Of a stretch of DNA of 64,000 nt, positions 9,335 to 60,724 are shown one piece after another. The translations under genes and the position numbers were made by a program. How positions within the stretch are numbered: position 1 is the first letter of the stretch; the number at the start of each line of letters is the position of its first letter. This stretch comes from an uncultured virus (IMG/VR IMGVR_UViG_3300042894_003697) (taxonomy: Duplodnaviria; Heunggongvirae; Uroviricota; Caudoviricetes): IMG/VR virus record IMGVR_UViG_3300042894_003697; one strand, given 5' to 3'. The notes below the pieces were generated by a model. The model was not told the DNA's origin, ran no database searches, and was given only the letters and a program-made list of their open reading frames with translations.

Positions 9335-9838
9335 ATGCTATATCAAGATCAAGTACGCAAAGACATATTACATTGGCTGGAAAACTTTGTTGAAAAGCCA
9401 CACCCTGCACTAGGCGGCTGGGCACCTTGCCCGTATGCACGTAGGGCCAGACTGGACAATGATTTCGAAATTAGACTGGGATTGGCGCCTATACATGATT
9501 TGATAAAAATCAGCAAGCACGGTCTTGGTGGTAAAAGTGTTATTATCATTGTGTACAAAGCTGATCAAGTATCACATGAATCGTTCAGCAACGATATTGA
9601 AATAGCCAACAGAGAATTTTTGTTGCCAAATAACCTGTTGGCACTGGAAGATCACCCTGATGATGTAGAAATGGTAAATGGAGTTTGCATGAATCAAGGC
9701 ACTTATGCATTGGCACTGGTGCAAAACCTTGATGATCTCAATGCCAAAGCCCACCAGATGGCCAACAAAGGATTCTATGACACGTGGCCAGAAGCATACT
9801 TAAAACCATTATTTAAACACAGGAAAGATCCACGATGA
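9335..9838 (+). CDS. DUF1415-like hypothetical protein
   Basis: WLENFVE...CPYA and EDHP motifs resemble the DUF1415 CPFA / FHP motifs. Confidence 0.5.
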   Translation: MLYQDQVRKDILHWLENFVEKPHPALGGWAPCPYARRARLDNDFEIRLGLAPIHDLIKISKHGLGGKSVIIIVYKADQVSHESFSNDIEIANREFLLPNNLLALEDHPDDVEMVNGVCMNQGTYALALVQNLDDLNAKAHQMANKGFYDTWPEAYLKPLFKHRKDPR

Positions 9839-10974
9839 CATATTCAGTATACCAACACTGGGACCCATTGAAAGTCTGTGTAGTAGGACGCAGCTATGCA
9901 CCTGAATTTTATTCTTGGATCACAGTGCCTCATGTGAGAACATTATTTGAAAAAATTGCTATCGAGACTGAGGAAGATTATCAAGCCATTATAAAAAAAC
10001 TACAAGAGTTTGGTGTAGAAGTACTGAGACCTAATTTGCCAACAGATGCGTTTGCAAACGGAAAATATGTCCCACCACCGATGTGTCCGAGAGATTATAT
10101 GGTGATGACTGGCGACAAATTTTACGAAAACTATAGTTTTGCTTTTAAAAAATCATACCAGAATGTCAAAGACTTGTCCTGGCCAGACTGTAGTTCAATG
10201 GAAGAGTTCGTATTGTTACCCAACAGTATACAACAAGAATGCAACATTAACCATTGGTTCAACGAATACCAAAAAATTTATTCCACATGTGATCATATTT
10301 TTGATCACATACGCCAACAAGGAAATACAATTAAGTCACACCATTATGACACAGACTTGTTAAACGGAGCACAAATATCACGCATTGGCAAAGATTTGTA
10401 TTTTGGAACAAACTCTTATGATCAAGACACAACCAATTATAAAAAATTTATTGACCAAGAATTTTTAAACACCAGAAATCACATTGTCAACACCGGCGGA
10501 CATGGTGATGGAACCTACTGTCCTGTATGCCCTGGATTAATCATAAGTCTTTATGATGTGCCCACTTACGCAAACACCTTCCCAGGATGGGAAGTAGTGT
10601 ATCTTCCTGGGCAGAGTTGGAACAAAGTACAACCATTTTTAAATCTTAAACGTAAAAACAAAGGCAAGTGGTGGATACCAGGTTTTGAACATGACCAAGA
10701 TGTAATTAATATTATTGAAAAATGGTTAGGACATTGGACTGGATATGTTGAAGAAACAGTGTTTGATGTCAACATGTTGATCATTGACCCTAAAAATGTT
10801 ATGGTGTTTAACTACAACAAACAAGTATTTGATGCATTGGATCGATATGGTATTACTCCGCATGTAGTTCCGTTTAGACACAGATATTTCTGGGATGGAG
10901 GAATACATTGTGTAACCAGTGATCTTCATAGAGAAGGTGTGATGCAAGATTACTTTCCAGGAAGGAATCAATGA
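9835..10974 (+). CDS. Amidinotransferase (glycine/inosamine-phosphate amidinotransferase, pentein fold)
   Basis: WDPLKVCVVG, GVEVLRP, CPRD, GHGDG (H-x-D), FDVNML and the catalytic Cys in GGIHCVT. Confidence 0.88.
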   Translation: MTYSVYQHWDPLKVCVVGRSYAPEFYSWITVPHVRTLFEKIAIETEEDYQAIIKKLQEFGVEVLRPNLPTDAFANGKYVPPPMCPRDYMVMTGDKFYENYSFAFKKSYQNVKDLSWPDCSSMEEFVLLPNSIQQECNINHWFNEYQKIYSTCDHIFDHIRQQGNTIKSHHYDTDLLNGAQISRIGKDLYFGTNSYDQDTTNYKKFIDQEFLNTRNHIVNTGGHGDGTYCPVCPGLIISLYDVPTYANTFPGWEVVYLPGQSWNKVQPFLNLKRKNKGKWWIPGFEHDQDVINIIEKWLGHWTGYVEETVFDVNMLIIDPKNVMVFNYNKQVFDALDRYGITPHVVPFRHRYFWDGGIHCVTSDLHREGVMQDYFPGRNQ

Positions 10975-11414
10975 CATATCAATTTGCCAGAATTGACCTC
11001 AGTAAAACTGAATATACACCTAGTGTACACTGGGAATATATCCAAGATCGCAGTGAAGATACATTAAAAAAATTAGATGATATCTACAGGACCTACACTA
11101 TTTACAAACACTTTGCTAGTGTAATGCCTATGTTTCACAGTAGATATTTGGATCCAATGGCAGATGTCATTGGCTACTACGATAACAACAAACTTGTGGC
11201 ATGGAGTTTGATCCGGCGTTTTGATAACCATAATGCCCTGTGCGATCAATTTGCATGGACATATCATCAACCTCGTTCAAGATTAGGAATTGAAACGATG
11301 AAAACAGAATGTGCTATCTACAAGGAGCGAGGATTTAAATACCTGTATCTTGAACAAGCACATCTGTACAAATCTGAAATTGATGGATTTGAAATAATAG
11401 GACCACTGGAGTAA
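10971..11414 (+). CDS. Aminoacyl-tRNA-protein transferase C-terminal-like (ATE1/Bpt, GNAT fold) protein
   Basis: YYDNNKLVAWS...FAW...SRLGIETMKTECAIYKERGFKYLYL...YK matches the ATE_C pattern (kLvA...slG...ei...g..ylYL...YK). Confidence 0.6.
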   Translation: MTYQFARIDLSKTEYTPSVHWEYIQDRSEDTLKKLDDIYRTYTIYKHFASVMPMFHSRYLDPMADVIGYYDNNKLVAWSLIRRFDNHNALCDQFAWTYHQPRSRLGIETMKTECAIYKERGFKYLYLEQAHLYKSEIDGFEIIGPLE

Positions 11415-11416
11415 CA

Positions 11417-11752
11417 ATGGATTTATACACAATTTGGGCAGACAAAGAGGGCGATATTTCTGACCTTGACTGGGTCAACGGAATGAAAAGTTTTTTTGAT
11501 CATTTGATTGCTGAAGGCCGAATGGAAAGCTATAGAATCACAAGATGCAAAATGGGATTCCGCAGCATTGCTAACATGCCCGAATGGATGATCATCATGG
11601 AATTTAAAGACATGGCTCAGATGGACATGGCATTCAAACGAGTAGCACCGCTCGAAGGCGAACTCGAAGAGAAACACAAATCGTTTAATCAATTTGTCAG
11701 TGGCAACATACAGCATGCGCTCTTCAGAGACTGGCCTGATCAAAATCTATGA
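11417..11752 (+). CDS. Small dimeric alpha/beta-barrel-like hypothetical protein
   Basis: 111 aa; GGAG SD; pattern YRITR.K.GF...EWMIIMEFKDMAQMD.AF is typical of ABM-like barrels (fold inferred). Confidence 0.5.
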   Translation: MDLYTIWADKEGDISDLDWVNGMKSFFDHLIAEGRMESYRITRCKMGFRSIANMPEWMIIMEFKDMAQMDMAFKRVAPLEGELEEKHKSFNQFVSGNIQHALFRDWPDQNL

Positions 11753-12534
11753 AATACACACTTTTTGCAGGTTGTTCATACACAGCCGGCGACGGATTTG
11801 AATTGAAAAAAACTGAACCGTCTTTGTGGGTTAATCAGGTATATCATAAATGTTTTTCGCACACTACCCAACTTAACGTGAGTCGAGGTGGCCGATCCAA
11901 TGCAGGTATTTTTCAAGACACAGTAAAAGTATTATTAACGTATCCGGTTGAATATGCCATAGTCGAATGGACCAGTATGCCGCGCTATGAGTTAGAATTA
12001 GGTTTTGAAACTTACACTACCAGACAATGTTTTATGCCAAATCTCAAATGCCATACCCATAACTTAAATGATATAAACTACACCAGTGCTTATTTGACTT
12101 CAATTTGCGAGAGGTTTACATCACTGGCACACGATTACTACGAAATATCAAATCTTATTGAGTATGTTAATACAATTGTTAATCTTGCACAATTAACAAA
12201 AACCAAAGTCTTTTTTATCAATGGATTGTGTCCTTGGGACAACAATTTTTTTATTAAAAAAGAATCTGTGCTTCCATCTGAATATACCACGTATACTCAA
12301 AAACTATTAAACACCAACAGTCGAGATGATACCGAAGTGTTTCAGTTATACAATACCATGCATGATAATTTTATTAATTTGGGTGGCATACACGAACTAC
12401 TATGGTTAAATTTATATAATTCGATGCTATCAAGCAAAATAGATGTAAACGATGATCTTGCTCATCCTGGCATTAACTCTAATAATCTTTATTTTGATTT
12501 ATTTTCTAAGCTATTAACCAAACAACTACTTTAA
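11749..12534 (+). CDS. SGNH/GDSL-like hydrolase or acyltransferase
   Basis: Block I-like AGCSYTAG, NVSRGGRSN, C-terminal DLAHP (D-x-x-H). Confidence 0.6.
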   Translation: MKYTLFAGCSYTAGDGFELKKTEPSLWVNQVYHKCFSHTTQLNVSRGGRSNAGIFQDTVKVLLTYPVEYAIVEWTSMPRYELELGFETYTTRQCFMPNLKCHTHNLNDINYTSAYLTSICERFTSLAHDYYEISNLIEYVNTIVNLAQLTKTKVFFINGLCPWDNNFFIKKESVLPSEYTTYTQKLLNTNSRDDTEVFQLYNTMHDNFINLGGIHELLWLNLYNSMLSSKIDVNDDLAHPGINSNNLYFDLFSKLLTKQLL

Positions 12535-12580
12535 GAACTTTGCGCTGCAAAGTTCTATTGATTTCACTTCGTTCATCAAT
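12534..12580. terminator. Two adjacent hairpins at the convergent junction (terminator or RNA 3' end)
   Basis: AGAACTTTGC-GCT-GCAAAGTTCT (10-bp perfect stem, 12534-12556) and ATTGAT...ATCAAT (12557-12580), followed by a T-rich run on the plus strand. Confidence 0.5.
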
Positions 12581-12939
12581 TTTGTTTTTCTTTAGTATTA
12601 TCTAGATTAACTGGTCACAATTCACCGTATGCACGGTGAACATGAAAAAGCATTATCTGAGTAGCCCAGTCATCTATCATAATGAGATTGCAGTTTCCTG
12701 CGCGGAGGCGGTTGACCGGTACCCCCTACTCAAGTTTCACATATCAACGGAACCCTAGTAACCCGACGATAAATCCAAGTTCTATGAGCACGGGTTGTAT
12801 CTTTTTCATCAGAGCCCGAACCATTTGTTGCCTTAAGTTAGCAATTGCCTTTGACACCCAAAGTTCTAGACCGGGTATTGCACCGTTCCTCGATGGGGCT
12901 GGACCAACCATCCAGCACAGAGTCAGTAAAGCTGCCTAT
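12534..12939 (-). ncRNA. Candidate large structured non-coding RNA of unknown class
   Basis: The only large gap between credible genes in the window; about 48% G+C by hand count over 12661-12900. Many stems, a GAAA tetraloop, and crossing long-range helices whose G-U pairs favour the minus strand. Confidence 0.65.
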
Positions 12940-13368
12940 CTAAATTTTATTTTTTATGTGACTACCATGTATGCGGCACACAATCTGTCCGTTGTAGTAG
13001 TCGTCTGATTCTAATACTCTATGATTGAATTGTTCTCTAGCTTCTACATAACTGCATTCTGCTTTTGATTTACAATAAAATAATATTTCTCTTGTGAAGT
13101 TGTCGGCGCCTTGCGCTAGAATGTCTTTGTTGAGTTGGTCGTTTGATCCATAATATAGTTGCCAGTCTGAGTCAATCTTGCTTCGAATTCGTTTTTTCTT
13201 TTTGTTGCCGTTCTTTAATTTTACTACTTTGTATGAGGTTTTACTAAATTTTGCTAATTTTTTGCCTATGTACTTGCGACCAGAAAGATTATTTGTAATC
13301 AAGTAAACAAACCCTACACAATCTTCTGGTAAAGTCTCAATTGGAGCATTTTGATATAGCCAGATCAT
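12940..13368 (-). CDS. Small stand-alone GIY-YIG nuclease-family protein
   Basis: GFVYLITN...RKYIGKK, YYGS, FTREIL, conserved Glu (YVEARE), YYN; Lys-rich insert; no appended DNA-binding domain. Confidence 0.85.
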   Translation of the reverse strand: MIWLYQNAPIETLPEDCVGFVYLITNNLSGRKYIGKKLAKFSKTSYKVVKLKNGNKKKKRIRSKIDSDWQLYYGSNDQLNKDILAQGADNFTREILFYCKSKAECSYVEAREQFNHRVLESDDYYNGQIVCRIHGSHIKNKI

Positions 13369-13428
13369 GTGTTGTGTGCGGGTTATCCTTGCTCTATAGT
13401 TATGCCTTGTTGTTGCCTGTTTGTGATT

Positions 13429-14274
13429 TTATGTTAGTTCTATTTCTCGTTGCCATTGTTGATCAAATGCTGTGCCCATACTGGTTTGCCCACACACTGC
13501 GGAACAGATAGGGTCCTGTGTAGGAATAGCATCAATATCTGTAATAAAGTCCTGTTGTCTTGTGCCTAACCAACAACAGGGTACCAAGTTGCCTTTTGCA
13601 TCAATAAATGCACTTTTTTCTCTAAGGGCGTAGCAATTTATTGCAGTTGATTGTGTTTGAATTGGTTGCCATCCAGTTGGGAATTGCAACGTTTCTGTAA
13701 ATGGACGTTTTGAAACTTTGGCACGAAACCAGCTGAACCCCATGTCTCTAGCCATTTGTTCGCATTTGTCGACCTGGTGTTGATTGTGTCTATACACCAA
13801 CATATCCCAGTGTGCAGAGCCGCCGGCCGAAACAAATGATTCAACGTTGGCCATTAGTTTATCCCAGTTTACATTTTTACGATATACGCCATTAGTGTCT
13901 GCCAGCCCGTCAATACTGAACACCACATAATCTTGCGGCTGAGTCATGAGTTGGGCTAGGCCGTGCCACCAGAATGTGCTTTGTATAGCGCCATTGGTAT
14001 TCATACCCAGTGTAATGTTGTTGTTGATAGACCTGAACCTATTGAATATGTCCAGCGTGTGTTTACCAGCAGCCGGATCTCCGTAGTTGCCGCACATAAA
14101 CATTTTGTCTAATTGGCGTATTTTATCTTCATTGATCACATTGAGAATTTGACTCATAGAAAGATGATGCTGACGATCTTTTCTAAAGTTTGTGTCAGTT
14201 TCTCTAGCACACAACGGGCATGCGGCCTGGCATACGTCCGTGGGTTCGAGATGTAGAACTTTTAAGTCACGCAA
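13429..14274 (-). CDS. Radical SAM protein with SPASM/twitch-like C-terminus
   Basis: CQAACPLC (CxxxCxxC), GNYGDP, NTNG, FSIDG, C-terminal C...IDAKGNLVPCC. Start is probably TTG 14274 or 14280, overlapping the gp46 stop. Confidence 0.85.
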   Translation of the reverse strand: MRDLKVLHLEPTDVCQAACPLCARETDTNFRKDRQHHLSMSQILNVINEDKIRQLDKMFMCGNYGDPAAGKHTLDIFNRFRSINNNITLGMNTNGAIQSTFWWHGLAQLMTQPQDYVVFSIDGLADTNGVYRKNVNWDKLMANVESFVSAGGSAHWDMLVYRHNQHQVDKCEQMARDMGFSWFRAKVSKRPFTETLQFPTGWQPIQTQSTAINCYALREKSAFIDAKGNLVPCCWLGTRQQDFITDIDAIPTQDPICSAVCGQTSMGTAFDQQWQREIELT

Positions 14275-16030
14275 GATCAATGTCCGTGTTGTAGCTAGTA
14301 AAGCCGTTTTCTTTGATAACTTTGAGAATGTTCTCCACACGTCCGGCCAGTTCATCGCGATGTGAAACAAGCCAGATTGACTTGTGGCGTTCACGACTCA
14401 TTTTCTTCAGCAAAGCCAGTGCATTCTCTACACCTTGTGTGTCTAAACCGCTGTCGATCATTTCATCAACAAACAACAAATTGATAGGCTGGTATAAACT
14501 TTCCCAGACATCACGGAATGCCCAGCTCATACTCAATATCAATCTGTTGCGTTCGCCACGCGATAAATTATCAAAATCTAATTCACGCCCTAGTTCTTCA
14601 ATGCTGACTGTTAAATCGTTTTGGAATAACACTGTGTGCGGTAATCCAATACGATCTAGATAGTGTGTGAGCCTTATATTAAGATAACTTAAATTTTGCT
14701 CAATGATTTTTTTGCGAATAAAACTGTCTTTGCTGGTCAATAGTTTAAGCAAGAAATCTTGATGCTCTTGCAATCTTGTGAGTTCATTGAGTGTTTCATA
14801 ATCAACTGTTTGCAGTGCCTGTCCTTGCATATCTTCAATTTGCTCACCGTATGGATCTACTTCTGCTGACTTGTCTGCAATTTGTTTTTGTAGATTTTCT
14901 AGTGTGGCACGGTGCTGAATGGCATCCTCTTCTTTGTCATAGAACATTTTAGGAGGCTTGCCTAACACACCTAATCCTTTGTGTGTGGCTTCCAGCTGCA
15001 TGAGATCATGTGTGTACATTTCGGCATTGGCATGAGCTGTGGCCAGATCTTGTTGTTTACTGGCCAGTACTTCTTCATGTTTTTCGTCATGCAGATCTTG
15101 CCCGCAGGCATGACAAGTATGTTTTTCCAATGCAGCTACGTCTTTGACTATCTTGGCAATTGTTTTTTCTTCTCGACCTAAATCAAGTTTAATTCGACTG
15201 ATAGAGCCGGCTAGGTCATTGATATCTTTGCGTTTTTGATCCCAAAGTTTGTGATCCTTGTGCGCTTGTATTTCAACATCAATATCAATTTCTTTTAACG
15301 CAGTTAGTGCGTTGGTAAGATTGTTAATATCTTCTGTGTGTTTGTTAGACCATAAAGTCTGGCGGCGTTTTATGGCTTCAATTTGTTCTTCGATTCTTTT
15401 GTTAGCTTCGGTAACTGCACGAATTCTAAATTCTTCTTGAGTTATTGCATCTTTAGTTTCTCGATTAAGTTCTTTAATCCTGTCAGCTCGCTCGCTGAGC
15501 ATGGTAATGCCTAACAACTGTTCAATGATGGTGCGCTGGTCGTTGGCCTTTAGACTCAGGAACGGTTCTGTGTAAGTGTTAAGTGCCAGGATATGTTTGA
15601 ACATATCGTGACTTAGACCTAGAGTTTGTTCAATGGCATCCTGTGTTTCTCTGCTGTCGCCCTGTGCTTCGTCAGTGACCATTTGCTCTTGATTGTTCAC
15701 AAAGAATCTTAACACATTGGGTTTGCGACCTCGTTCAATTTTATAATCTCGGCCATTGCAAACAAAGTCTAAACTGACCAACATGTTCTTCCCATTGGTT
15801 TTGTTTACTAAATTATCTTTGCGAATGTTTGAAAGAGCATTGCCATACAATGCATAACTTAAAGCATTGATGATAGTGGTCTTACCTGTGCCGTTACGGC
15901 TTCCATCTCCGCCTAGATCTAGATTTTCGCCTAGCACCAGTGTGAGATCACTACGATCAAAGTCAATGGCCTGTGTGGCATTGCCCACACTCATGAAATT
16001 TCGGACAGTAAGATTTTTAATGTGTATCAA
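14267..16030 (-). CDS. gp46: Recombination endonuclease ATPase subunit (gp46, SbcC/Rad50 family)
   Basis: Walker A NGTGKTT, zinc hook CHACG, signature LSRGE, Walker B LLFVDE, H-loop VSH. Confidence 0.95.
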   Translation of the reverse strand: MIHIKNLTVRNFMSVGNATQAIDFDRSDLTLVLGENLDLGGDGSRNGTGKTTIINALSYALYGNALSNIRKDNLVNKTNGKNMLVSLDFVCNGRDYKIERGRKPNVLRFFVNNQEQMVTDEAQGDSRETQDAIEQTLGLSHDMFKHILALNTYTEPFLSLKANDQRTIIEQLLGITMLSERADRIKELNRETKDAITQEEFRIRAVTEANKRIEEQIEAIKRRQTLWSNKHTEDINNLTNALTALKEIDIDVEIQAHKDHKLWDQKRKDINDLAGSISRIKLDLGREEKTIAKIVKDVAALEKHTCHACGQDLHDEKHEEVLASKQQDLATAHANAEMYTHDLMQLEATHKGLGVLGKPPKMFYDKEEDAIQHRATLENLQKQIADKSAEVDPYGEQIEDMQGQALQTVDYETLNELTRLQEHQDFLLKLLTSKDSFIRKKIIEQNLSYLNIRLTHYLDRIGLPHTVLFQNDLTVSIEELGRELDFDNLSRGERNRLILSMSWAFRDVWESLYQPINLLFVDEMIDSGLDTQGVENALALLKKMSRERHKSIWLVSHRDELAGRVENILKVIKENGFTSYNTDIDLA

Positions 16031-17196: not shown

Positions 17197-18210
17197 TCAT
17201 AAATTCTGATAGATTTGCAGCAATAACTTTGAATCAAAGAATTCAGATTCAATATTGGTCAGTTGGTCTGTGACAATTTGATCTACACTTTCAAATTTGA
17301 TTTCGCCAGGCGACATGTCTGTGTCTACTGCTGAATTCTTAACAGGAATCAGTGCCATTTCACGCAGATTATAATCCTTGACAAACGTATCTTTGATAAA
17401 GTTTGCTTCCTCGTAGCTGATGTCAATGTCTAATTCTACACGAATATGCATATTTGGTGCTAGCAGTGTCGGGGCACTGTCGATTACTTGACTAAGTTTG
17501 AGCACACGATATAATGGTTGTCCTGGCCAAGCATGATATTCCGGCTCATCTCCCCAGTTCAATATCATCATTCCGCGATCTGCATCTCCGGCATCTGCAT
17601 AATTATGAGGAAAGCAATTGCCAATGTAATGTATATTTTTACGTTGTTGTCTAAGATGAAAGTGCCCACTAAAGACTCGATCTACACCACCAAAATCTTC
17701 TGCCGATATTTCTCCATGGTCTGGCATCTCTACCATGGCATTCATTTTGAAATGTGGCAGTTCAAAATGTCCAAACACATATTTGGATGTTAATTTGGGC
17801 ACACGCTTGTGATCATCTCCAACTAGCCAAGGAGCAATAGTTACATCACCATCAGTGAACCAGTCGTTTACAATTTGAATGTTGGGCAGGTGTCGAGCCC
17901 ATTCAGTGCTGTAGATATCACGTCGGTCACGATAGTACAAGTCATGATTGCCAGGAATAAAATAAAAGCGATCAAATGCCGCCGAAAGCTTTTCTAAACT
18001 ACGCAAACTGTATTGCAAGGTCTGCATGTTTATGCTGGCACGATGATGACTCCAATCACCCAGGAACATGCCAGTCTCACAACCATTTTTTTTGGCAGTG
18101 GCAATAAACCAATCAACAAAATTGCTGCAGTCTTGATTGTGAACAAGACTGTTTGATTTCAGCCCAAAATGTATATCTGTGCAAACTGCAACTTTTTTAA
18201 ATAGACTCAT
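17197..18210 (-). CDS. gp47: Recombination endonuclease nuclease subunit (gp47, SbcD/Mre11 family)
   Basis: Metallophosphoesterase motifs TDIHFG, LGD, GNHD, GHFE, SGHFH. Confidence 0.95.
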   Translation of the reverse strand: MSLFKKVAVCTDIHFGLKSNSLVHNQDCSNFVDWFIATAKKNGCETGMFLGDWSHHRASINMQTLQYSLRSLEKLSAAFDRFYFIPGNHDLYYRDRRDIYSTEWARHLPNIQIVNDWFTDGDVTIAPWLVGDDHKRVPKLTSKYVFGHFELPHFKMNAMVEMPDHGEISAEDFGGVDRVFSGHFHLRQQRKNIHYIGNCFPHNYADAGDADRGMMILNWGDEPEYHAWPGQPLYRVLKLSQVIDSAPTLLAPNMHIRVELDIDISYEEANFIKDTFVKDYNLREMALIPVKNSAVDTDMSPGEIKFESVDQIVTDQLTNIESEFFDSKLLLQIYQNL

Positions 18211-18217
18211 TGAGTAA

Positions 18218-19120
18218 TTATACTACATCATCTAGACTGGAGTAAACCGGACCGGACAACGCCATCATTGAATGTTTGCCAGTGTTTTGTCGCGTCCATG
18301 ACGGATTGAGACCATTCATTTCTAATATGTCGTCTCTGATATTTTGATTTTTCTTTTCTAAATTCAAGATACGAGTAAAGCTATTAGTGATAGCGGCAGT
18401 ATAATACGCAAAAGGGTTCTGCGATTTTGATTCATCGAACTGAAGTCCGATTTGACTGAGCTGCAACAGGGCTTGTCCGCGCATTTCTTCATTGTAGGTG
18501 TATCCTCTCCAATTTGATCGTGTGGCATAACGCTCACATAACTTCATAAACATAGTAGCCAACTTGCGAGTCATTTCGCCATGATCTCTGCTGAACTCGC
18601 CGTTGACTAAATCGCCTTTCCAATGGCTTTTGCCCACAAGATAAGGAACTTTATTTTCATCTAAGCGATAGTGATAAAATGGAGGAAAGTTTAATCTAAC
18701 ATGTTTGGGATCCAACACAGGAATTTCCACCAGTTCTGCCAATGGATCTTCCTCCTCCATTTCCAGTTCAAAAATATCTTGAAGCTTTTGTTTTTTGGCC
18801 TCAGCTTTGGTAATCTTTTTAGGCGCCATTGGAATATGCTCCCAACAGGTTATCCTAAACACAAGATCAGTGTTGGCAATCTTTTTAGGATCTACAATTA
18901 TACCTTCACGTTTGAGCCGGTCTGCACGATTGCGCCGCGCCTCGGCCACAGTTTTTTGATTGATTTTGTTAACTGCTGGTAAAATAATATCGTATTGGTG
19001 ATCCAATTTGGGATCACGGAATGTGCAATATGTATTTTTACTTGAATGTATTTCTTTAAGAATATCTCTGTTGTTGAGATAGTTGACTTTGGCTGGGGTT
19101 CTAGCTATAGTTTCTGCCAC
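18218..19120 (-). CDS. gp55: Late-transcription sigma factor (gp55)
   Basis: NYLNNRDIL, NWRGYTYNEEM, FDESKSQNPFAYYT...NSF.R.LN.EKK. Start is GTG 19120 with AGGAGA SD. Confidence 0.9.
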   Translation of the reverse strand: MAETIARTPAKVNYLNNRDILKEIHSSKNTYCTFRDPKLDHQYDIILPAVNKINQKTVAEARRNRADRLKREGIIVDPKKIANTDLVFRITCWEHIPMAPKKITKAEAKKQKLQDIFELEMEEEDPLAELVEIPVLDPKHVRLNFPPFYHYRLDENKVPYLVGKSHWKGDLVNGEFSRDHGEMTRKLATMFMKLCERYATRSNWRGYTYNEEMRGQALLQLSQIGLQFDESKSQNPFAYYTAAITNSFTRILNLEKKNQNIRDDILEMNGLNPSWTRQNTGKHSMMALSGPVYSSLDDVV

Positions 19121-19139
19121 TGATGTTCTCCTGAATATA

Positions 19140-19172
19140 TATTTATTGTAGCACAAACACAACAGTTGTCAA
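19140..19172 (-). promoter_or_regulatory. Sigma70-like promoter (TTGACA-16nt-TACAAT, extended TG) overlapping a late TAAATA, upstream of gp55
   Basis: Minus strand reads TTGACAactgttgtgtttgTGcTACAATAAATA. Confidence 0.7.
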
Positions 19173-31300: not shown

Positions 31301-31804
31301 ACAGGAACAGTGCCGTTACCATTGGCACCCACCATTGATGATCTCACAACTGCATACGTTGGACTACAAGATTACAAAATGATATCAGATAATATGATAT
31401 TAAATTCTGTGCAGTTTCAGCCATTGTTTGGCAGCAAGGCCGCACCAGCTTTGCGAGCCACAATAAAAGTCATACAATCTACACAAAGCACTGCCAGCAC
31501 CAGTGAAATAAAAAATCTTGTTGTGGCCAATATGAACGCATATTTTGACATAGCAGTTTGGGATTTTGGACAAACATTTTATTTTTCAGAACTGGCTGCA
31601 TACATACATCAACAGATAGGCGACATAGTTAGTTCTGTTGTGCTGGTTCCTTTAAATCCACAAAAGAGTTTTGGCGATTTATACGAAATCAGATGTGCAC
31701 CTAATCAAATTTTTGTGAATGGTGCCACTGTTAACGACATACAGGTCATAACTGCATTGACCAGTACAAACTTACAAACTGCTCCTGGCAGCGGAGTAAT
31801 TTAA
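28391..31804 (+). CDS. gp6: Baseplate wedge subunit (gp6-like)
   Basis: DFETLRKSF, FNDYIESSE, ENYLDTAERRDSV..LA..VSY.P, FGDGVF, QNRMVNGEDY. TAAATA at 28367-28372 upstream. Confidence 0.88.
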   Translation: MATTTRQTVIFGVEDWKRIYQTYREADFQSYDFETLRKSFVDYLRLYYPETFNDYIESSEFIALLDVMAFMGQSLAFRSDLNTRENYLDTAERRDSVVKLANLVSYTPLRNTESSGYLKVFSVKTTENVTDYNGVNLANITVNWADPSNLNWQEQFTSIINSALVNTQRFGKPGNDQVILGVDTQEYTVNLVPGFLPVIPYTATIDGINMPFEAVSATSSGQTYIYEPPPLPNGQFNMLFRNDQLGFSSANTGFFFYFKQGVLQNQDFNLPERISNRQVNINIEGINNTDVWLYQLDNVGNITSYWQFVQSVYAAAVEQLTPGTRDIYSITSATNDQIILNFGDGVFSTIPVGTFRTYVRSSNGLTYIINPEEMQSVSIPISYVSRTNQIETITFTCGITSPVTNAQARETLEQIKQRAPAQYYTQNRMVNGEDYNNFPFTQYNSILKSKALNRASIGTSRYLDLVDGTGKYSSTNIFAADGALYEANTLPAFQFSWLTIPDISDVLYNQINPLLIKAGLQQFYYANFTRPDLSVLNYTWRQSTVITNETTGYFQNAAGTPVPIGTYASNNAKYITEGSLVKFVPPTGYYFNSDNQLVAGIPGLAGDKLVIWASPTAVYLSGTASGFGNLPSGVGPVVLNNFVPTGAIPTQVIPVFVTDIPVSVQQNIVNQIYLNQNFGIGYNNITATWYVITANNLATNAAFSLTNQQSTAGTNSDASWLIQVTTTASGLANYTVVSRSLDYYFGSVIDTRFFFYTNQPIYDSRTGTVIRDFVNVLKVNSQPDSNFPLAGDNVLTIIDQPVLSDGLVDDFQVLVSFATTPGDLIPINPDFFNDIVAPNVNANHKLVFLQQTVDFDNLQRYLLVASGTVNSDYATLGAIELAIAQYNLGQVFYAYQDQVFYTLAVNSAGDTILTVNSTYIAYTGRQSLYFQYRHNSPLTNRIDPGSTNIIDIYIVTNSYYTAYTNWLRDSTGTVPLPLAPTIDDLTTAYVGLQDYKMISDNMILNSVQFQPLFGSKAAPALRATIKVIQSTQSTASTSEIKNLVVANMNAYFDIAVWDFGQTFYFSELAAYIHQQIGDIVSSVVLVPLNPQKSFGDLYEIRCAPNQIFVNGATVNDIQVITALTSTNLQTAPGSGVI

Positions 31805-34800
31805 TGGCCACAGTTCGCACAGTTGATTTTTTACCAGAAATATTTCAAACACCGGTTAACAAGCAATTTTTAGCAGCCACTCTTGACCAACTGGTTCAAG
31901 AACCTAAATTTAAAAAATCACAAGGGTTTATAGGACAACGAGTTGGACCCGGGGTCAATGCCAATGACCAGTATGTGATTGAACCTACAAAAAGTCGCAA
32001 TGATTATCAGTTAGAACCTGGCGTGGTTCAAATTGATCCAGTTGATGCTAAAAAAATTGTTGATGTCATAACTTATCCAGGCATAACTGATGCATTGACT
32101 CTGCAAGGTGGAATCACCAACAATGCAGATTATCTTTATACCAGTGATTACTACACCTGGGATCCTTTTGTTGATTTTGATAAATTTGTAAACTACGCAC
32201 AATATTTTTGGTTGCCCAATGGACCAATGGCAGTTGATGTGAGTGCCACTGGAGTACCTGTTACCGACAGTTTCACTGTGACTCGTGCAAATGGAGTCTA
32301 TACTTTTAGTGGGTATGCAGGCAACAATCCAGTACTAACTTTGGTCAAGGGCGGCAACTATACATTTAATGTGGCACAAAATACCACTGAAACAATCACA
32401 TATCGTGTGACCAATAGTGGCACAAGTGCATATGTGATCAATCAAGAATCAAATCCCAGTCTGACTTTGGTTCGAGGAAATACATACTATTTTAATCTGT
32501 CATTGACTGGCGCTTTTCCTTTTTTTATTAAAACTATTGCCAGCCTGGGCCCGGTCAATGTCTATTCCAATGGAGTCATAAACAACGGAGCCAGTGACGG
32601 ACAAATTATATTCACAGTGCCCCAAGATGCTCCAGATGTATTATTTTATTGCAATCCAGTGGAGTTTAATCTACGTGGGCAATTTAACATAATTGACGCA
32701 ACTGCAGGAACTGGCAATGATTTCTGGATTCAAACTGATCCTGGAATCAATGGACGTATCCCTGCAACTCCTAACATCAGTAGTAGAACTATACTTGGAG
32801 TAACCAATAATGGTATTGATCTCGGAACTATTACATTTGATGTACCCCTCAGTGACGCACAAAGTTTTTATTATAATTTACCTGCTATCCCACTCAACAA
32901 CGGCACAGTTGATCTTATAACAACAACCTTACAATTCAATCAAGTCAATAATCAATTTCTTGATGCATTTTACACAGCCAATCCCAATGGGATAGATGGC
33001 ATAACAAATTTAAATGGTCGCACCATTGTTTTTACTGCAACTCAAGGTTGGGAAATAACAAGTTTTTTTGATCCGTTGGTCACTGGTCAAAACGGACAAC
33101 CAGGCAGCTTTGATAGTTTGCCGTTTGATAACACTACTTTTATTACCAATCCAGAAGAACAATACAGTGTCTGGAGAATTCAGTATCAAACTGATTCGGG
33201 TGGCCAGGTCTATCTGTCATTGACCAGTGTTGCAACTGTGCCAGAATTAGATAAATTTACTATTTTGTTTGGCAACCAATGGGCCAGCACACAGTGGTAT
33301 AAAGATGTCGATGGGTATTTTGAACAAATTCCATTGTTGACTGCAGCACGTAGTGTACTATGGTATCAAGATGGCACGGATCCTAATATTTTTGGTCAAA
33401 TTCGATTAATTGATCAAACGGGTGTTTCTACATTGGATATTGATACTATCATTGGACAAAAAACCTATACAAGTCCCAATGGAGTAACATTCACCAATGG
33501 TATGAAAGTAATATTCCGTGGTACTACGGCTCCGGCCAGTTATTCAAATAATGAATATTATATAGAAGGAGTTGGGACTGCAATTCAATTGTTGCCAGTA
33601 ACCAATTTTGTAACACCGGAACCATATGTTGAAGCACAATATGCATTGATCAACAGTGACTCTGCATTGAACGGCCCGTTGACTCCGGACTATTTGACAA
33701 TAAATCGAGCCAGTGGAGATTTAAACCCATGGTCTCGTAGCAATCGTTGGGTTCAAATTGATGTTATCAATGCGTCGGCTGCTTACAACAATACTGTTCC
33801 TGTGTTAGATAACAATTTTCGTGCTCGCCGACCTATATTAGAATTCCGTGCTGGAACTCGATTGTTTAATTTTGGAACACAAGGCAAACCACCGGTTAAC
33901 ATTATTGATTTCACACAAACAGATGCACTAAGAACAGTCAACGGCAGCATTGGTTTTGGCACTGATGGTTATGAGTTAGTCAGCGGTGACAGAGTTGTTT
34001 TTGCTGCTGATATAGATCCTGTTGTTCGGCGAACAATATATCAGGTTAGTTTTATTATTCCTGATACCGTGCCACCATTGATTTCACAGCCATTGATTAG
34101 TTTAATTCCTGCTGCTGATAGTCCAGCATTGCTTGATCAAAGTGTGTTGTGTTTAAATGGTAACACGTTACAGGGTCAAAGTTTCAGATATGACGGTGTT
34201 AATTGGGCGGAAGAACAACAAAAACTCAATGTCAATCAACCTCCTCAATTTGACATTTATGATGCTGATGGAATAAGTTTTGGTGACAGAGTCAAATACT
34301 CCAGTTCAAACTTTCTAGGCAGTTCATTGTTCAGTTATGCAGTGGGATCTGGTCCGTTAGATTTATATTTAGGATTTCCGTTAACCTATCTGAGTTTGAC
34401 CAACATTGGTGATATTGTTTTTGATAACAATTTCTATGCTGATTCATTCACCTACACATTGAATACTGTTGGGCAGACTGTGCCATTAAGTTCCGGATTT
34501 GTAAGGCAGTACAGTACCCGATTGCTGTACGACCGAGAAATTGGATGGCAAAATGGAATAACCCAAAGTCAAATTAGACAACAATTTCAATTTGTCTATG
34601 ATGGATCGCCTTCACTACTGGATATTGCAGTCAGTACTGGCACAGTGGTTCCTGCAGTACAAGTTTTTATCAATGCTACTTTTCAAGAATCTTACAACTA
34701 TAGAGTCTCTATAGGAACCAACACAACCACAATCACATGGTTGACCGAGTATGCACCTGGAGACTTGATTGAAATTCAAGTGCTCAGTGATCAGGTCAGT

Positions 34801-37800
34801 ACAAATGGATTTTTCCAAGTTCCTATGAATTTAGAAAACAATCCATTAAACGGCAACAGCACACAATTTACGCTGGGCACTATTCGCAATCATTACAGTA
34901 CCATTGCTCAAAATCTTATTGGCTTGCAAGGGCCAGTCATTGGTGCAAACAATACCAGAGACCTGGGCAACTTGATCCCTTACGGTTTACAGATACTGCA
35001 ACAAAGTTCGCCGCTCACGTTGGCCGGCTATTTTATGCGAGATCCCAACTATGATGTATTTGCTAGTTTGGATTTTAACAGCCGAGAATACATTAAATTT
35101 AAATCTTTATTGTTAAACACTGTGATCAGTAACGATTACGGAACAATGACCATTCCAGAAATATTAGATTCTGCAATTGCACAAATCACTGTTGGCAGAA
35201 CAAATTTAAGTCCGTTCTATTGGAGTGACATGTTGCCAACTGGCACCACGTTTATTTCAAACTCCACAACAGTATCACAAATAACAACATCAGTATTCAA
35301 CACTTCACAAACTTACAATTTTACTGAATCTAACTACTTGGGATTATTAGTATACCTCAATGATGTGTTATTGGTGCGCAACTATGATTACATAGTGAGT
35401 GTTGATAGTCCTGTGTTGACCATAACAGTACCATTGAGCGTAGGCGATGTTGTCACAATCAATGAATACAGTGATACTGTTGGAAATTTTGTACCCAACA
35501 CACCAACCAAATTGGGCTTGTATCCTAAATTCAAGCCTGAAATCTTTTATAATCCTGACTATTTAAATCCTGTTCTGGTTATACAAGGACATGATGGTAG
35601 TATAACAATAAGTTTTGGTGATTTCAGAGATGAAATCTTGTTAGAATTTGAAAAACGAATTTATGACAATCTTAAAAATGATGGTAATCCAGTACCGTTG
35701 GTTGCCGAAGATGTTGTGCCAGGATTTTTTAGAACCACGGATTACACACAGGCGCAGATAACACAAATACTCAGTGAAAGTTTTTTAACTTGGGTAGGCC
35801 AAAACAAAGTAGACTATAAAACACAAAACTATATTGCAACAAACCCGTTTACCTACAACTACAGTGTGTCTGGTAACAAACTCAACGAAGAACCGTTGTT
35901 GGGCGCCTGGCGAGGTATCTATCGTTATTTTTACGATACCACAAGTCCTAATCTAACACCATGGGAAATGCTGGGATTCTCAGAGCAACCTGCCTGGTGG
36001 ACTGCACGTTATGGTCCTGTGCCGTACACCAGTGATAACCTGGTATTATGGGGCGATCTTGAAGCCGGATACATAGCAGATCCTATTGCACCTTATATTG
36101 ATCCTCGTTATGTACGTCCTGGATTGACCACAGTGATCCCGGTGGACTCGCAAGGTGAATTACTAAGTCCATTACAAAGCGTAGTGGGATTGTATAATCC
36201 CAATGCTTGGCGTAAAAGTTGGGTAGTCGGCGATGGCGGTCCAACTGAAGCTTCATGGTGGGCTAGTTCAAGTTATCCGTTTGCAGTCATGCGATTGCTA
36301 GCGTTAACACGCCCGGCTGAATTTTTTAGTTTGTTTGTGGACAGAGACCTGTATCGCTACAATGCGGAATTTGAACAATATCTCTACAATGATCGTTATA
36401 GAATCAATGCCAATGAAATTCAAGTTTATGGCAACGGAGTCAGCAAGGCCAGTTACATAAATTGGATTATTGATTATAATCAACAACTTGGTATTAATTC
36501 ATCTTCGGCACTAACTAGAGATTTGGCCAATCTTGATGTGAGACTTTGTTATAGAATGGCTGCGTTTACAGACAAACAGTATGCTAATATCTATTTGGAA
36601 AAGTCTAGTCCAGACAGCCAAAATTCTAGTTTGTTGTTGCCACCGGAAAGTTGGAATTTATTACTATATGCCAATCAACCTTTTGGTGAGATTGTGTACA
36701 GCTCGCTAATAATTCAACAATTAGAATCAGGGTTCACTGTGTATGGATACAGTAATGTTCAACCATATTTTCCAATTGTGGCCAGTGCTACCAATGGAAC
36801 AACACAAACCATCAGTGCCGGTGGCACTGATGTAATAGTTCCTGCACAGTATACCAATAATATAGTTAATATACCTTATGGATACAATTTCTCTAACGCT
36901 ACAATTGTTGTGGATTTTATTTTAAGTTATGGTGTATTTTTAACCAGCCAAGGGTTGGTATTTGACGGAGTACAAAATGGTTACACCCTTAACTGGGCAC
37001 AGATGGCTCAAGAATTTTTATACTGGAGCCAACAAGGCTGGGCTCCAGGCACAATTATTAATTTGAATCCTGGTGCCAGTAAAATAACTGCATACAAGCC
37101 CGGAGCAGTTGTGGCAGCAGTCACAAGTTTGACTCCAGAAAATCAGTTGACTGATCAAAACAAACAGTCGATCAAATCGCGCGATTTGATCGTACAACGA
37201 TACGGAGATACATTTACCATATCATCTGCCACGAATCAAACTATTTCATATCTGGATTTAAAATTTACCAATTATGAAAATATGGCTGTGTTGGACAATG
37301 TTAGTATTTTTAACGATTTAATATATAATCCCATAACCGCAGAACGACAAAGTCGTATGGCCTGGAAGGCCAGTATCAGCAGTGACTGGGATGGCACTTT
37401 AAATGCGCAGGGATTTGTACTAAATCAAAACAATGTTGATCAATGGCAACCTAGTGTAAAATACACCAAGGGTGAAATAGTAATTTATAAAAACACCTAT
37501 TGGAGTGCGTTGAATATAATTCAACCTAGTACAACTTTTGACTATGCCAATTGGGTCAAGAGTGATTATGCTATGATCGCTCAAGGTCTGTTGCCTAACA
37601 TTGCCAACAAAGCTGATCAACAAGCCAATAGCTATAATATCTATGATGCCAATTTGGCCAGTGACAATGATTTACTGGCATTTGGTCTCACTGGATTTAG
37701 ACCACGTCAATACATGGTTGACCTTGATCTTGATGATGTTAGTCAAATACAGCTTTATCAAAACTTTATTGCCAGTAAAGGTACTAGATTAAGTGCAGAA

Positions 37801-40800
37801 TTATTTACTCAGGCCAATCTTAGAAGAGAAACTGGACAGTACAACATATACGAAAATTGGGGAATACTAATAGGAACCTATGGCGCTAATGCCAATCGTA
37901 GTTGGTTCGAACTAAATCTCAATCAGGCACTGTTAACTGCCAATCCTAGCACAGTACAAATCATACAACCAGGTCAATCAAGCCAAGCTGATCAAACAAT
38001 ATTTCTAAGCAATCTCTGGAGTGAAAGTTACGCTATACCTACTGTTAATATTTTGCCTACAACATACGGTACAAATCTTGACACAGCATTACCATCTGCA
38101 GGCTATGTTAATGTTGACGATGTAGATATAACAGTATTCAATCTCAATGATCCAGAAGCCATCAATGCTAACATTGATACAATCGGCAATGGAACAATTA
38201 TTTGGGTAGCACAAGTTAACAGCTATGATTGGGGCATTTTTAAGTGCATTCAAATTCCAAGTTCCATGACGTTGTTGAGCAACAATTTAAATGGAACTAG
38301 TGTAGCTCAATTCACTGGTACTCATGGGCGATCAGTGGGCGATGTTATTATTATAAGATATTTTAATGACGGAGTCAATGGAGTTTACCGAGTATTAAGT
38401 GTGCCAACACCCACCACACTAGTGGTTGCATTTGCATTTACCAATACCAATCAAAGTCAAATCACAGGCACAGGATTGGTATTTTATCTACAAAGCACAA
38501 GAGTTGCTCAAGCAAGTGATATTAATAATTTGCCTTTTGTCAATGACCTTGTTTCGGGTGCAAAGGTCTGGGTTGACAACGACGGGTTTGGCCATTGGGA
38601 AGTGTTGGAAAAAACTGCGCCGTTCAACATTGCTGACACACTTACACCTTTTACCTTGTTTACTGATTCTTTGTTTGGTACCAGTGTTAGTCAAACCACA
38701 AATCATCAGAGTGCACTGGTCGGTGCACCCCAGGCCCTGTCTGGTGCAGGCGCAATTTATACATACCGTCAAAATAACATAGTTCCTTATGTTGATAATA
38801 TATTACTGACACTCAATGCCACAGGCACTGCAGGATATGGTAACAGTGCTAAATTTGGCAACAACAATTGGGCTATTGCTGGCGCCAGCGCCAGCAACGG
38901 CAATGCTGGCTATGCAACCACTTTGTATCAAGTTCCTGGCTCCAATAGTTATTTACAAACACAACTGTTGGTTGCACCAGATCAAAACTTTGGTCCTACA
39001 CGATTTGGATCAGCAGTAGCAATAAGTTTTGACGAGCGTTGGATGTATATCAGTGCACCTGGGGCTGATGCAGTGTATGCCTACGGCAGAGTTGATGTGC
39101 CAGTACAATCAGTGACATACACTAGCAATGGCACTACATCATCGTTTAACTGGTCAGAATCAATCACAATTGATCCAACATATCCAAATCAGTTGCTGGT
39201 GATTGTAAATAATTTAATTGCAATCGAGGGCATTAATTATTATATCAATGCAAACGTAGTGCAATTTTTTACTGCACCAGCTGCTGGTCAACCAATAACA
39301 CTGCGACGTAGACAAGCAGCGCAGATTGATCGTCAAGATTATTTTAACATTGAGCAAAATTCAACCAGTGGCACTGGTGTAGGAGCTGCATTCACAGTGG
39401 TAAACACTCGCGGCGTTTACAACCCCACAATAACCACTGCAGGCACTGGATATGCGGTCAATGATACCTTGACCATTGATTATACTCAAATTTGTCCCAA
39501 TGGATCAGGTGCAAACAATTTGGTTATAACAGTGACCGAAGTTCAAGCCGGTGCAATTACTGCATTTAGTTTTGCTGGCAGCGGTGTCACTACAAACAAC
39601 GGCTTTGCACTAGTTGAATATTTAAACACAGTGTCTGACATTTACTCATTCACAGTCACAGTCAATGGTGTATTGCAAAGACCGCATCTTGATTATGATT
39701 TCAATAGTGATAGTTCGTTGGATTTTGGTCTGTTAGAATTTAACACTATACCTCCAGCAGGAGCAGACATTGCAGTTTCCGCCAGCACATATTGGCAATA
39801 TATCAATTCAATTACTGTCAATGGTCTTGGCGCAGACGCAATATTTGGATCTAGTTTGGATACCTCCACTGATGGCCGACAATTGTTGGTAGGCACTATC
39901 AACGACAGTGCCAATACCCCAACTGGCACGGTTCAACTGGCCGGATCAGTGTACGTGTACAATCGTAGTTCTGTAAGCTACCAAATAACCAATGCTGCCC
40001 AAACCACATACGTAATACCAGGCACATACACTGATCCTGTTGCAGTGTTGTTGAACAACACGTACTTGACCAATACTGCTCAATACATCAATGGGCAGTA
40101 CACAGTGAGTGGCAGCAATATCATATTGAATACTGACCTAACATTGACCATTGGTGATATATTAACAATTGAAACCAACCAGTTCCAACTGGTTGAAAAA
40201 ATTACAGCAAATATTCCAGCAGCACAATCAGCATTTGGATATGCAGTTACTATATGTCCTAATAATTGCAGTGTGTATGTTGGTAGTCCATTGAGCAGTC
40301 AGTCCGGAGTAGTGCAATCCGGCGCTGTTGCGCGATTTGCCAATCAGACTAGAATATACGGAGTAATTACATCAACTGTGGCCAATCCTACATTGATTGC
40401 CGGGGACACCATTAGAGTCAATGACATTGAAGTAGCAGTGCCTGTTGCTCCTGACAACAATCTAGCAGGTCTGGTGGATGCAATAAATGCTGCCAATGTG
40501 CCAAATGCAGCTGCAACATTGACACCCAATGTGGAGTTTGTTGGCGATGGCACTACTAAAATATACAACGTAGGATCCATTTATTCAGCTGCTGAATCGT
40601 ACACCACAGTGGTCTATGTCAACTCAACATTGCAAACAGCCGGTGTAGATTATACCTACAACAATACTACTCAACAAATAATATTTGTCACTGCTCCGGG
40701 TGCAAACTCAGCAATTATTGTAGTGTCTGGAAGAATAACAATATCAGTAATAAACGCAACATCTGTTTCGCCTTTCAACAAACTCAGTGTGTTTCCGGGC

Positions 40801-59998: not shown

Positions 59999-60724
59999 AT
60001 GAAATTTTTTATATTGGGTAGTAGTTGGGGCATGGGAGAATGGACCATAAAAAGTGGTAAGTTTGAATCAATACCCAACACTGGATTAGATTATCACTTG
60101 ACTCAACTTGGGCACACAGTTACAAATATATCCGCCGGTGGCGGCAGTAATTTTGGCCAATTAAGACATGCATACTGGACCCTCAAAGAAAATTCAGACT
60201 ATGATTATATAATTTGGTTTCAGACAGAGTCAATAAGAGACGTAGAAGAAATTCTTATAAACGATCCTGAAGAAGGTCAACGACATTTTCCAAATTTTGA
60301 TATAAGCAATTTCGATGTCGGATTGGATTATCTAGATTTTGAGAATTACAAATATGCACAAACAATTGCAGATGAATACAATATACCGTTTATTGTGATT
60401 GGAGGGCAGAGTCCAGTTAACCCCGTAATTGCCCAATTTTCTTTTGCACAACATATAATACACTGTTGGCTGGCAGAACTACTAGAGTTAAATTTTATTC
60501 CACCAAAAAATACTTTTTTTATTAGATCATGGGATAAATTTAAAAGAATATTAGATCATTATGGTGTTGATCAAAAAGAGTTTATTATTAATAATATAGA
60601 TCAATTAGATAAAGCAAAAATAATACAGGAGTTAACAGTTAAAAGTTTGTTGTTTCCAGACAACTGTCATCCTTCAAGTGAATACTTTAAACAATTAGCG
60701 CAACGAATAATAAAAATGATATGA
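59999..60724 (+). CDS. SGNH/GDSL-like hydrolase or acyltransferase
   Basis: LGSSWG.G, NISAGGGSN, C-terminal DNCHP. Confidence 0.55.
   Translation: MKFFILGSSWGMGEWTIKSGKFESIPNTGLDYHLTQLGHTVTNISAGGGSNFGQLRHAYWTLKENSDYDYIIWFQTESIRDVEEILINDPEEGQRHFPNFDISNFDVGLDYLDFENYKYAQTIADEYNIPFIVIGGQSPVNPVIAQFSFAQHIIHCWLAELLELNFIPPKNTFFIRSWDKFKRILDHYGVDQKEFIINNIDQLDKAKIIQELTVKSLLFPDNCHPSSEYFKQLAQRIIKMI

Follow-up and report, generated by a model that had tools for sequence, protein, structure and literature searches.

In the OMEGA systems (IscB or TnpB with omega-RNA, HEARO) a compact nuclease gene is accompanied by a large structured RNA that extends from the 3' end of the gene on the same strand. Other large and intricately folded RNAs of unknown function, GOLLD and ROOL, are also borne by phages, and Slx1 is a GIY-YIG example among the Holliday-junction resolvases, enzymes that replace one another. 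Here we describe a locus in a window of 64,000 nucleotides (nt; the whole stretch of DNA that was analysed, IMG/VR record IMGVR_UViG_3300042894_003697) of an uncultured tailed virus, where the gene of a stand-alone GIY-YIG nuclease of 142 amino acids (aa) is followed, on the minus strand, by a structured non-coding region. The original prediction, made from the letters alone, had proposed that the protein and the RNA form one ribonucleoprotein module. Our data suggest that the RNA is most likely an element of its own and not a guide or subunit specific for the GIY-YIG protein. The fuller reading, which we hold with middling confidence, is that of an autonomous, modular phage RNA that forms the 3' tail of a recombination operon and whose twin exposed sites bind a co-varying partner.

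The likeness to OMEGA consists in a compact nuclease gene and a large same-strand structured RNA starting at the 3' end of this gene. The nuclease, however, is of the GIY-YIG or PD-(D/E)XK type and not RuvC/HNH (the Pfam and fold matches of the window protein are to GIY-YIG only), there are no transposon ends, no hypervariable guide on a conserved scaffold and no Rfam match to HEARO, and the nuclease and the RNA each occur apart from the other, so that membership in OMEGA is rejected. Compared to GOLLD and ROOL, the window RNA is smaller, has another architecture and gives no Rfam match to either. The phage T4 homing endonucleases of the Seg/I-TevI type share the catalytic fold and the Pfam family with our protein, which, in contrast, has no DNA-binding domain, is present in a single copy at a conserved place and has no intron context. 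The link to the Hjc/Hje resolvases, known here from sequence and fold only, is that an Hjc-like PD-(D/E)XK gene takes the GIY-YIG slot beside gp46/gp47. A group I intron with an endonuclease open reading frame (ORF) is likewise rejected: no Rfam intron family matches, and the RNA is followed by convergent genes and not by a downstream exon. A literature search for GIY-YIG proteins together with structured or non-coding RNA in T4-like phages did not find such a pairing.

Architecture and types of the RNA

Conservation of the region was seen in 141 fetched loci (98 distinct sequences); it begins at the GIY-YIG stop codon and extends to position 12534. In an alignment of 31 sequences 92.1% of the cells are paired, against 36–44% with slid partners, and 44 of the 93 pairs have changes on both sides, against 7–15 with slid partners; none of 500 shuffles reached the observed covariation. 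RNAalifold, applied independently, gave 33 compensatory pairs out of 76, and folding of the single sequence was uninformative (z = −1.44). Since invariant G-U pairs are present, the RNA can be assigned to the minus strand, the strand of the gene, and the earlier placement of an RNA-like region directly behind the GIY-YIG stop codon on the same strand holds, as does the double hairpin at its end (12580-12557 and 12556-12534, both stems covarying). Coding readings were rejected: on the same strand a 55-aa ORF is free of stops in only 2 of the 98 relatives, the antisense span is stop-free in only 6 of 98, the span lengths fall over all three residues modulo 3, and the variability has no three-base periodicity.

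The overall fold has three parts, an exchangeable 5' domain, a core with two pseudoknots (PK1 and PK2) and a 3' module in which a repeat, a hairpin and a second repeat are followed by an A-rich linker and two terminal hairpins. The parts are as follows.

12534-12939, minus strand: whole non-coding RNA region (type 1), ~405 nt, stop codon through second terminal hairpin; conservation and covariation
12787-12924, minus strand: type-1-specific 5' domain with five helices; helices 1 and 3-7 of the covariation table, 96-100% paired, compensatory
12924-12922/12855-12853, minus strand: helix H1
12916-12898, minus strand: variable hairpin
12897-12894/12860-12857, minus strand: helix H2
12889-12868, minus strand: H3
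12843-12829, minus strand: H4
12822-12787, minus strand: H5
12683-12784, minus strand: conserved core common to types 1 and 2; helices 8 and 11-13 of the covariation table, and nhmmer
12784-12756, minus strand: H6
12732-12729/12686-12683, minus strand: H7
12726-12704, minus strand: H8
12701-12690, minus strand: H9
12768-12774, minus strand: 5' strand of PK1 in the H6 loop, pairing with 12678-12672; 94.8% paired, three double-changed pairs
12672-12678, minus strand: 3' strand of PK1, directly 5' of R1
12744-12748, minus strand: 5' strand of PK2, GTTGA, pairing with TCAAC at 12715-12711 in the H8 loop
12650-12672, minus strand: direct repeat R1, with the 7-nt core AGATAAT at 12658-12652
12621-12640, minus strand: hairpin H10 between R1 and R2, 100% paired in the covariation table
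12595-12617, minus strand: direct repeat R2, with the 7-nt core AGATAAT at 12603-12597
12557-12580, minus strand: terminal hairpin T1; 6/6 outer pairs covary; a T-run follows it on the plus strand
12534-12556, no strand assigned: terminal hairpin T2; the stem covaries; terminator-like for the convergent gene on the plus strand, whose end is at 12534

In T1 an internal loop, GA opposite GAA, is kept beside a stem of two base pairs and a small loop, the outer stem being the part that covaries; the hairpin may be a motif for protein binding rather than a plain terminator.

The window RNA reaches the gathering score of no Rfam family and has no match even at E ≤ 10 on 12300-13500; by covariance-model score it does not belong to RF01718, the Polynucleobacter-1 motif (gathering score 37 bits). 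Among 29 distinct sister loci, however, 24 contain RF01718 at full length with 70–120 bits, starting 10–45 nt past the GIY-YIG stop codon; the misses are L032, L042, L075, L077 and L080, and the type-1 loci L042 and L075 have no Rfam match at E ≤ 1. Approximately half of the GIY-YIG-anchored relatives carry this motif as a different 5' part (type 2), and their RNAs run past its 141 nt into the core and 3' module of the window type. The nhmmer profiles of each type match the 3' half of the other, in type-2 loci from about profile position 220 onwards, and type 2 also possesses PK2, the R1–hairpin–R2 arrangement and the terminal hairpins. Because the sister phages have the RF01718 motif on the same core, the window RNA is, judged from the sequences, a new 5'-domain variant of an extended Polynucleobacter-1 class, which is itself a larger modular RNA.

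Both pseudoknots can be followed in type 2. PK2, invariant within type 1, covaries between the types (TTGA/TCAA, TTGT/ACAA, TCAT/ATGA): among 43 unique strings 19 have TTGT/ACAA, 17 TTGA/TCAA and one TCAT/ATGA, three have a mismatch in the last pair, and the remaining three were mis-anchored by the search pattern and yet show TTGA/TCAA. The strands of PK1 change in step in 28 type-2 sequences read by eye (TTAGCGT/ACGCTAA, CTGATAT/ATATCAG, CTAGTAT/ATACTAG); a test of PK1 in type 2 by length only did not separate it from the reversed control, and it is on these 28 sequences that the claim is based. The complete type-1 genomes G002 and G003 contain no RF01718 and the type-2 record G005 contains one, which suggests that the types replace each other at a single locus. 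A third 5' domain stands on the R1–hairpin–R2 module at L032:3433-3907, with no RF01718 match and a weak profile match. In five type-2 loci (L029, L039, L046, L047 and L062) an insert of ~40–60 nt made of tandem TTATAG-like units replaces H9 between H8 and R1.

The table rows for Polynucleobacter-1 in its description read 'RNA y, cis-reg y, switch ?' and list it as likely cis-regulatory, with a range of Burkholderiales and fresh water or estuary and 16 representatives (Weinberg et al. 2010, PMC2864571); the alignment of that study includes a copy from a Polynucleobacter chromosome. The RNA described here stands instead at the 3' end of a phage operon and faces convergent genes. The position directly after the stop codon of a small nuclease gene is shared in the sister phages, as is the fresh-water habitat; the window RNA differs by its 5' domain and has no 141-nt motif, and the motif as published accounts for just the first third of a ~450-nt RNA. 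Our literature search found the motif named in no paper besides the 2010 description.

The paired repeats R1 and R2

The cores of R1 and R2 are identical in 85 of 86 loci. Counted over unique modules the identity is found in 50/50, 55/56, 58/58 and 21/23, in four sets that partly overlap, and at least ten core variants occur; the flanks of the two repeats, by contrast, differ consistently (ACTC vs ATCT). H10 between them differs in sequence in type 2 and in L032 but remains a hairpin there. The pseudoknotted core would present the identical single-stranded 7-nt cores as two equivalent binding sites. Their partner, which would have to change together with the cores, could be a protein that forms a dimer, or a nucleic acid present in two copies or offering two sites. 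A second, lineage-specific contact may come from the swappable 5' domain.

Searches for such a partner within the RNA found no column that covaries complementarily with the cores and no positionally recurrent complement of 9, 7 or 6 nt. Within ±2.5 kb there were 18 matches in 160 loci, about the number expected by chance, and in five phage records the complement was found only at the locus itself and at scattered non-matching sites. An exact second copy of the R2 11-mer lies at 60326-60336 of the window (minus strand), antisense inside the ORF 59999-60724; it is treated as chance because in a related complete genome with the same core the 11-mer has no copy at a second place. A copy with one mismatch, TCTAGATGAT, is located at 18227-18236 (minus strand), just upstream of the gp47 start and beside a TATAAT-like hexamer. 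Both copies are probably due to chance.

Other readings of the repeats were rejected. The variable parts of R1 and R2 do not pair consistently with each other, and neither is an extension of H10 consistent (helix 14 of the covariation table, 40.9% paired). A miniature array of clustered regularly interspaced short palindromic repeats does not fit, as identity is confined to the 7-nt cores, with flanks that differ, and the 'spacer' is a conserved hairpin; promoter-like readings (–35/–10 spacing) and small-ORF readings were dropped on the sequence itself. Direct repeats with covarying identity are known from the iterons of plasmid and geminivirus origins, and the repeat–hairpin–repeat unit could act as DNA, offering iteron-like sites to a co-evolving DNA-binding protein in origin function, recombination or packaging. 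The iteron-like behaviour of R1 and R2 and the adjoining recombination genes are in line with this idea, but variants of H10 stay paired through G-U wobbles on the minus strand only, the unit is joined to a covarying RNA fold with PK1 ending at the first base of R1, and no cognate protein has been identified. A role as DNA therefore appears very improbable to us.

Nucleases of two folds in front of the RNA

The GIY-YIG protein matches PF19835 (SegE_GIY-YIG) with an E value of 1.8e-32 at residues 3-129, which covers the entire 123-position profile, and neither Pfam nor the fold search revealed a second domain. The earlier view that the protein is only a catalytic domain without the C-terminal domains of I-TevI and Seg is thus correct. 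Its 'very basic insert' is indeed a basic stretch, but not an insert: it lies within the Pfam profile and is predicted to form a β-hairpin (residues 40-66). The AlphaFold model (mean predicted local distance difference test score 81.9) has the catalytic domain of I-TevI as its top structural match (Z 8.3, root-mean-square deviation 2.7, 78 residues aligned), followed at lower ranks by the GIY-YIG domains of UvrC, T4 EndoII, R.Eco29kI and Slx1 (the last weak, Z 3.1); Foldseek gave no match at E ≤ 0.001. From 146 complete relatives 105 distinct intact sequences of 141–152 aa were obtained, in which GxxY, YIGK, R93 and E109 are invariant. The family is present in one copy per record in 282 isolate phage records, and the complete genomes G002 and G003 have one copy each. 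A homing endonuclease of the Seg/I-TevI type shares the catalytic domain (PF19835, I-TevI fold), but the short length leaves no room for C-terminal DNA-binding domains, and single copy number and fixed position do not fit a mobile, sporadic distribution.

The co-occurrence of gene and RNA was followed from both sides in sets of 80 loci each. Of the GIY-YIG-anchored loci nine had too little downstream DNA, and in 70 of the 71 informative ones the RNA follows the gene (33 of type 1, 35 type 2-like, two with only the 3' part); L080 has none. When the type-1 motif served as the anchor (five loci with too little upstream DNA, 75 informative), 73 loci have a GIY-YIG gene on the same strand upstream of the RNA; L142 and L158 carry a type-1 RNA, but the 2.5 kb of sequence upstream of it contain no GIY-YIG gene. 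With the type-2 motif (three chance pattern matches without RNA and two loci too short, 75 informative) the gene is upstream in 74, being adjacent in 67 and separated by ~0.8–1.0 kb in seven; in L287 the RNA is partial and the GIY-YIG gene is missing. One or two genes (1–2 kb) separate gene and RNA in 16 of the 73 type-1 loci, and with insertions or without them nothing else stands between the RNA and the convergent genes in any locus.

In L142 (2692-3201, minus strand) and L158 (3491-3997, minus strand) the GIY-YIG slot is occupied by a gene of the PD-(D/E)XK family PF24608, ~170 aa (E 1e-24). From 553 relatives of this gene 80 loci were fetched (L337-L416), none of which has a GIY-YIG gene within 3 kb. 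The RNA follows in 56 of them (31 of type 1, 20 type 2-like and five partial), and 22 further loci have a fourth conserved non-coding region, RNA form 'T4', which brings those with a conserved RNA region to 78 of 80; genes are inserted between the PD-(D/E)XK gene and the RNA in ~13 of 51 loci. Form 'T4' is ~430 nt long (L394:3560-4000 and 21 further loci, L389-L415), has 28 compensatory pairs among 63 predicted and no Rfam match, and has a T1-type hairpin at its end; the first of its hairpins is similar to the variable one seen in some type-1 RNAs. The catalytic residues D60, E73 and K75 (D..ExK) of the PD-(D/E)XK protein are invariant, its best fold matches are Hje (Z 7.7) and Hjc (Z 6.7, 6.4 and 5.9), all below Z 8, and a search of PDB sequences gave noise only. 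The modelled fold makes the PF24608 gene look like a non-orthologous replacement of a candidate resolvase, and PF24608 is absent from G002 and G003.

Nuclease fold and RNA type assort freely. GIY-YIG genes occur with type 1, type 2 and the third type (L032), and PD-(D/E)XK genes with type 1, type 2 and form 'T4'; by a quick tree L032 and L033 have near-identical GIY-YIG proteins and different RNA 5' domains, that of L033 being type 1. In the isolates Melnitz-3 and P-HM1, two of the 282 isolate records, protein-coding genes directly follow the GIY-YIG gene, nhmmer finds no RNA and RF01718 is absent from the whole record. The original prediction had named independent occurrence in relatives as what would speak against a module, and the GIY-YIG gene is thus found without the RNA and the RNA behind an unrelated nuclease. 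The synteny that it had proposed to test is seen in the counts given above, though not as an obligate association. The guide-like variable segment within a conserved scaffold that it had suggested looking for was not found in alignments of 31 and 98 sequences, where the variable stretches are a paired hairpin, two stretches of 6–8 nt and the A-rich linker.

A functional module, in which the small nuclease that precedes the RNA is bound, regulated or inhibited by it, or else processes it, must still be weighed. It draws on the adjacency in all three sets, on the exact replacement of the GIY-YIG gene by a PF24608 nuclease (L142, L158) together with the conserved RNA region in nearly all PD-(D/E)XK loci, on the terminator-free junction crossed by contigs (see below) and on the conserved basic β-hairpin. 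On the other hand, it is unlikely that two unrelated folds would bind the same RNA alike; fold and type assort freely, the GIY-YIG family is widespread without the RNA, and approximately one fifth of the loci have one or two genes inserted between the supposed partners. No GIY-YIG column tracks the R-core variant (the top mutual information, 0.45 of 1.0 bit, is at hypervariable columns), and what varies in the RNA is paired stems or stretches of 6–8 nt rather than a long guide. The features of the module that stand are the single strand, the junction and the adjacency, and as a whole we consider it rather unlikely.

Several observations nevertheless weigh against the autonomy of the RNA and its proposed role. 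About 60 of the 71 GIY-YIG-anchored loci have gene and RNA directly adjacent, an unusually well-kept junction, and the upstream junction of the gene is kept less often, in 31 of 73 loci; a nuclease of either fold precedes the RNA in nearly every locus, which a functional tie would explain too. The basic hairpin is longer in the RNA-bearing lineage than in the isolates without the RNA, by 6 residues relative to Melnitz-3 and by 12 relative to P-HM1. No R1/R2 partner emerged from the complement searches in cis or in trans, and no promoter of its own is visible for the RNA. Expression is documented by assembled metatranscriptome contigs only, for which DNA carry-over is possible. The resolvase role of the GIY-YIG protein is drawn from gene replacement only, and a search for the T4 endonuclease VII family in G002 and G003 gave no match but was silent in the controls as well. 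Finally, the synteny counts are not independent, as the loci were all drawn from a single group of related, uncultured phages.

The 3' end of the operon and its significance

The window phage is a giant T4-like phage derived from a lake; related complete records are ~337 and 347 kb long and have terminal repeats. The genes upstream of the RNA form the following series.

18218-19162, minus strand: late sigma factor gene
17197-18210, minus strand: gp47
14267-16030, minus strand: gp46
13429-14394, minus strand: radical-SAM gene
13397-13402, minus strand: TAACTA motif upstream of the GIY-YIG gene, candidate promoter by reading of the motif only
12940-13368, minus strand: gene of the 142-aa stand-alone GIY-YIG nuclease, SegE_GIY-YIG family, phrog_447

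Read-through transcription of the gp47–gp46–radical SAM–nuclease operon would yield the RNA as the 3' tail, and the transcript would end at the paired terminator hairpins. As the original prediction had stated, no terminator-like site was found on the minus strand between the GIY-YIG gene and the RNA. Assembled lake-metatranscriptome contigs of relatives cover both gene and RNA, and two of them span the stop codon and the junction; they leave 12400-12547 and 13399-13500 uncovered, and as the flanks vary among relatives these contigs cannot show absence. The TAACTA motif that had been taken for a variant of the late promoter is present (13402-13397, one base away from the position first given), but the upstream regions of late genes show (A)TAAATA and not TAACTA, which does not favour the promoter role. 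Motifs like (A)TAAATA lie 10–30 nt upstream of several structural genes, in the regions of 5457, 27971, 28391 and 46948 of the window, and could represent the late promoter in this group of phages.

The position at the end of the operon raises the possibility of a purely cis-acting 3'-end element that shields the operon mRNA from 3' exonucleases and/or insulates the convergent transcription units. Such a function would agree with the constant place of the RNA before the convergent genes, whichever gene precedes it, with the end region of T1 and T2, which reads as terminators on both strands, and with the missing promoter. However, an RNA of ~270–400 nt with two pseudoknots, swappable 5' domains and sequence-constrained single-stranded repeats goes far beyond what is required of known terminators or decay blocks, T1 and T2 alone already give termination, and the strict identity of R1 and R2 would have no role. 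We regard a solely cis-acting element as unlikely.

The convergent cassette opposite the RNA (9335-12534, plus strand) encodes a DUF6614 protein and amidinotransferase-like and SGNH-like genes. In relatives these accessory genes can have the orientation of the RNA and separate it from the nuclease gene, as the SGNH-like gene does in L106. Elsewhere in the window a single ORF of 4773 aa occupies 31804-46125 (plus strand), and no tRNA or tmRNA was found in its 64 kb. The whole locus had no blastn match among 50,697 phage records. A scan of genome contigs gave 15 matches, of which 12 were due to chance and three had the RNA, on contigs binned with metagenome-assembled genomes (MAGs) of Bacteroidota: L205 and L209 (148 kb and 183 kb; GIY-YIG gene and type-1 RNA) in one Haliscomenobacter MAG and L202 (1.7 kb; type-2 RNA) in a Flavobacteriales MAG. 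All three are probably contigs of phages that were drawn into the bins.

The simplest view of the GIY-YIG protein is that it belongs to the recombination gene block and acts on DNA as a structure-specific nuclease. If it is interchangeable with an Hjc-like resolvase, as we propose, this would explain why it needs no DNA-recognition domain, and a structure-specific nuclease would need no RNA for its DNA specificity. A two-part system, in which a small stand-alone DNA nuclease of either fold is joined by a modular RNA that, through its exchangeable 5' domain and its two identical 7-nt sites, sets when, where or on what the nuclease acts, or restrains it, seems improbable to us. If true, it would represent an RNA-controlled nuclease outside the RuvC/HNH world, and the rule that R1 equals R2 would stem from a target, co-varying with the phage, that is recognized or bound by pairing.

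The Polynucleobacter-1 motif has been in Rfam since 2010 as an orphan of 141 nt ascribed to Burkholderiales and lake metagenomes. In the viral contigs that we fetched it is the 5' third of an RNA of ~450 nt in T4-like phages with complete genomes of ~340 kb. At least four interchangeable forms of the RNA occur at this locus, two of which, the window type and form 'T4', have no Rfam match. The RNA is preceded by the gene of a small nuclease, which has either of two unrelated folds, and carries two matching single-stranded sites. An orphan RNA class thereby gains concrete experimental handles, and the 'minimal' GIY-YIG protein of hundreds of T4-like phages becomes a candidate structure-specific, resolvase-like nuclease.

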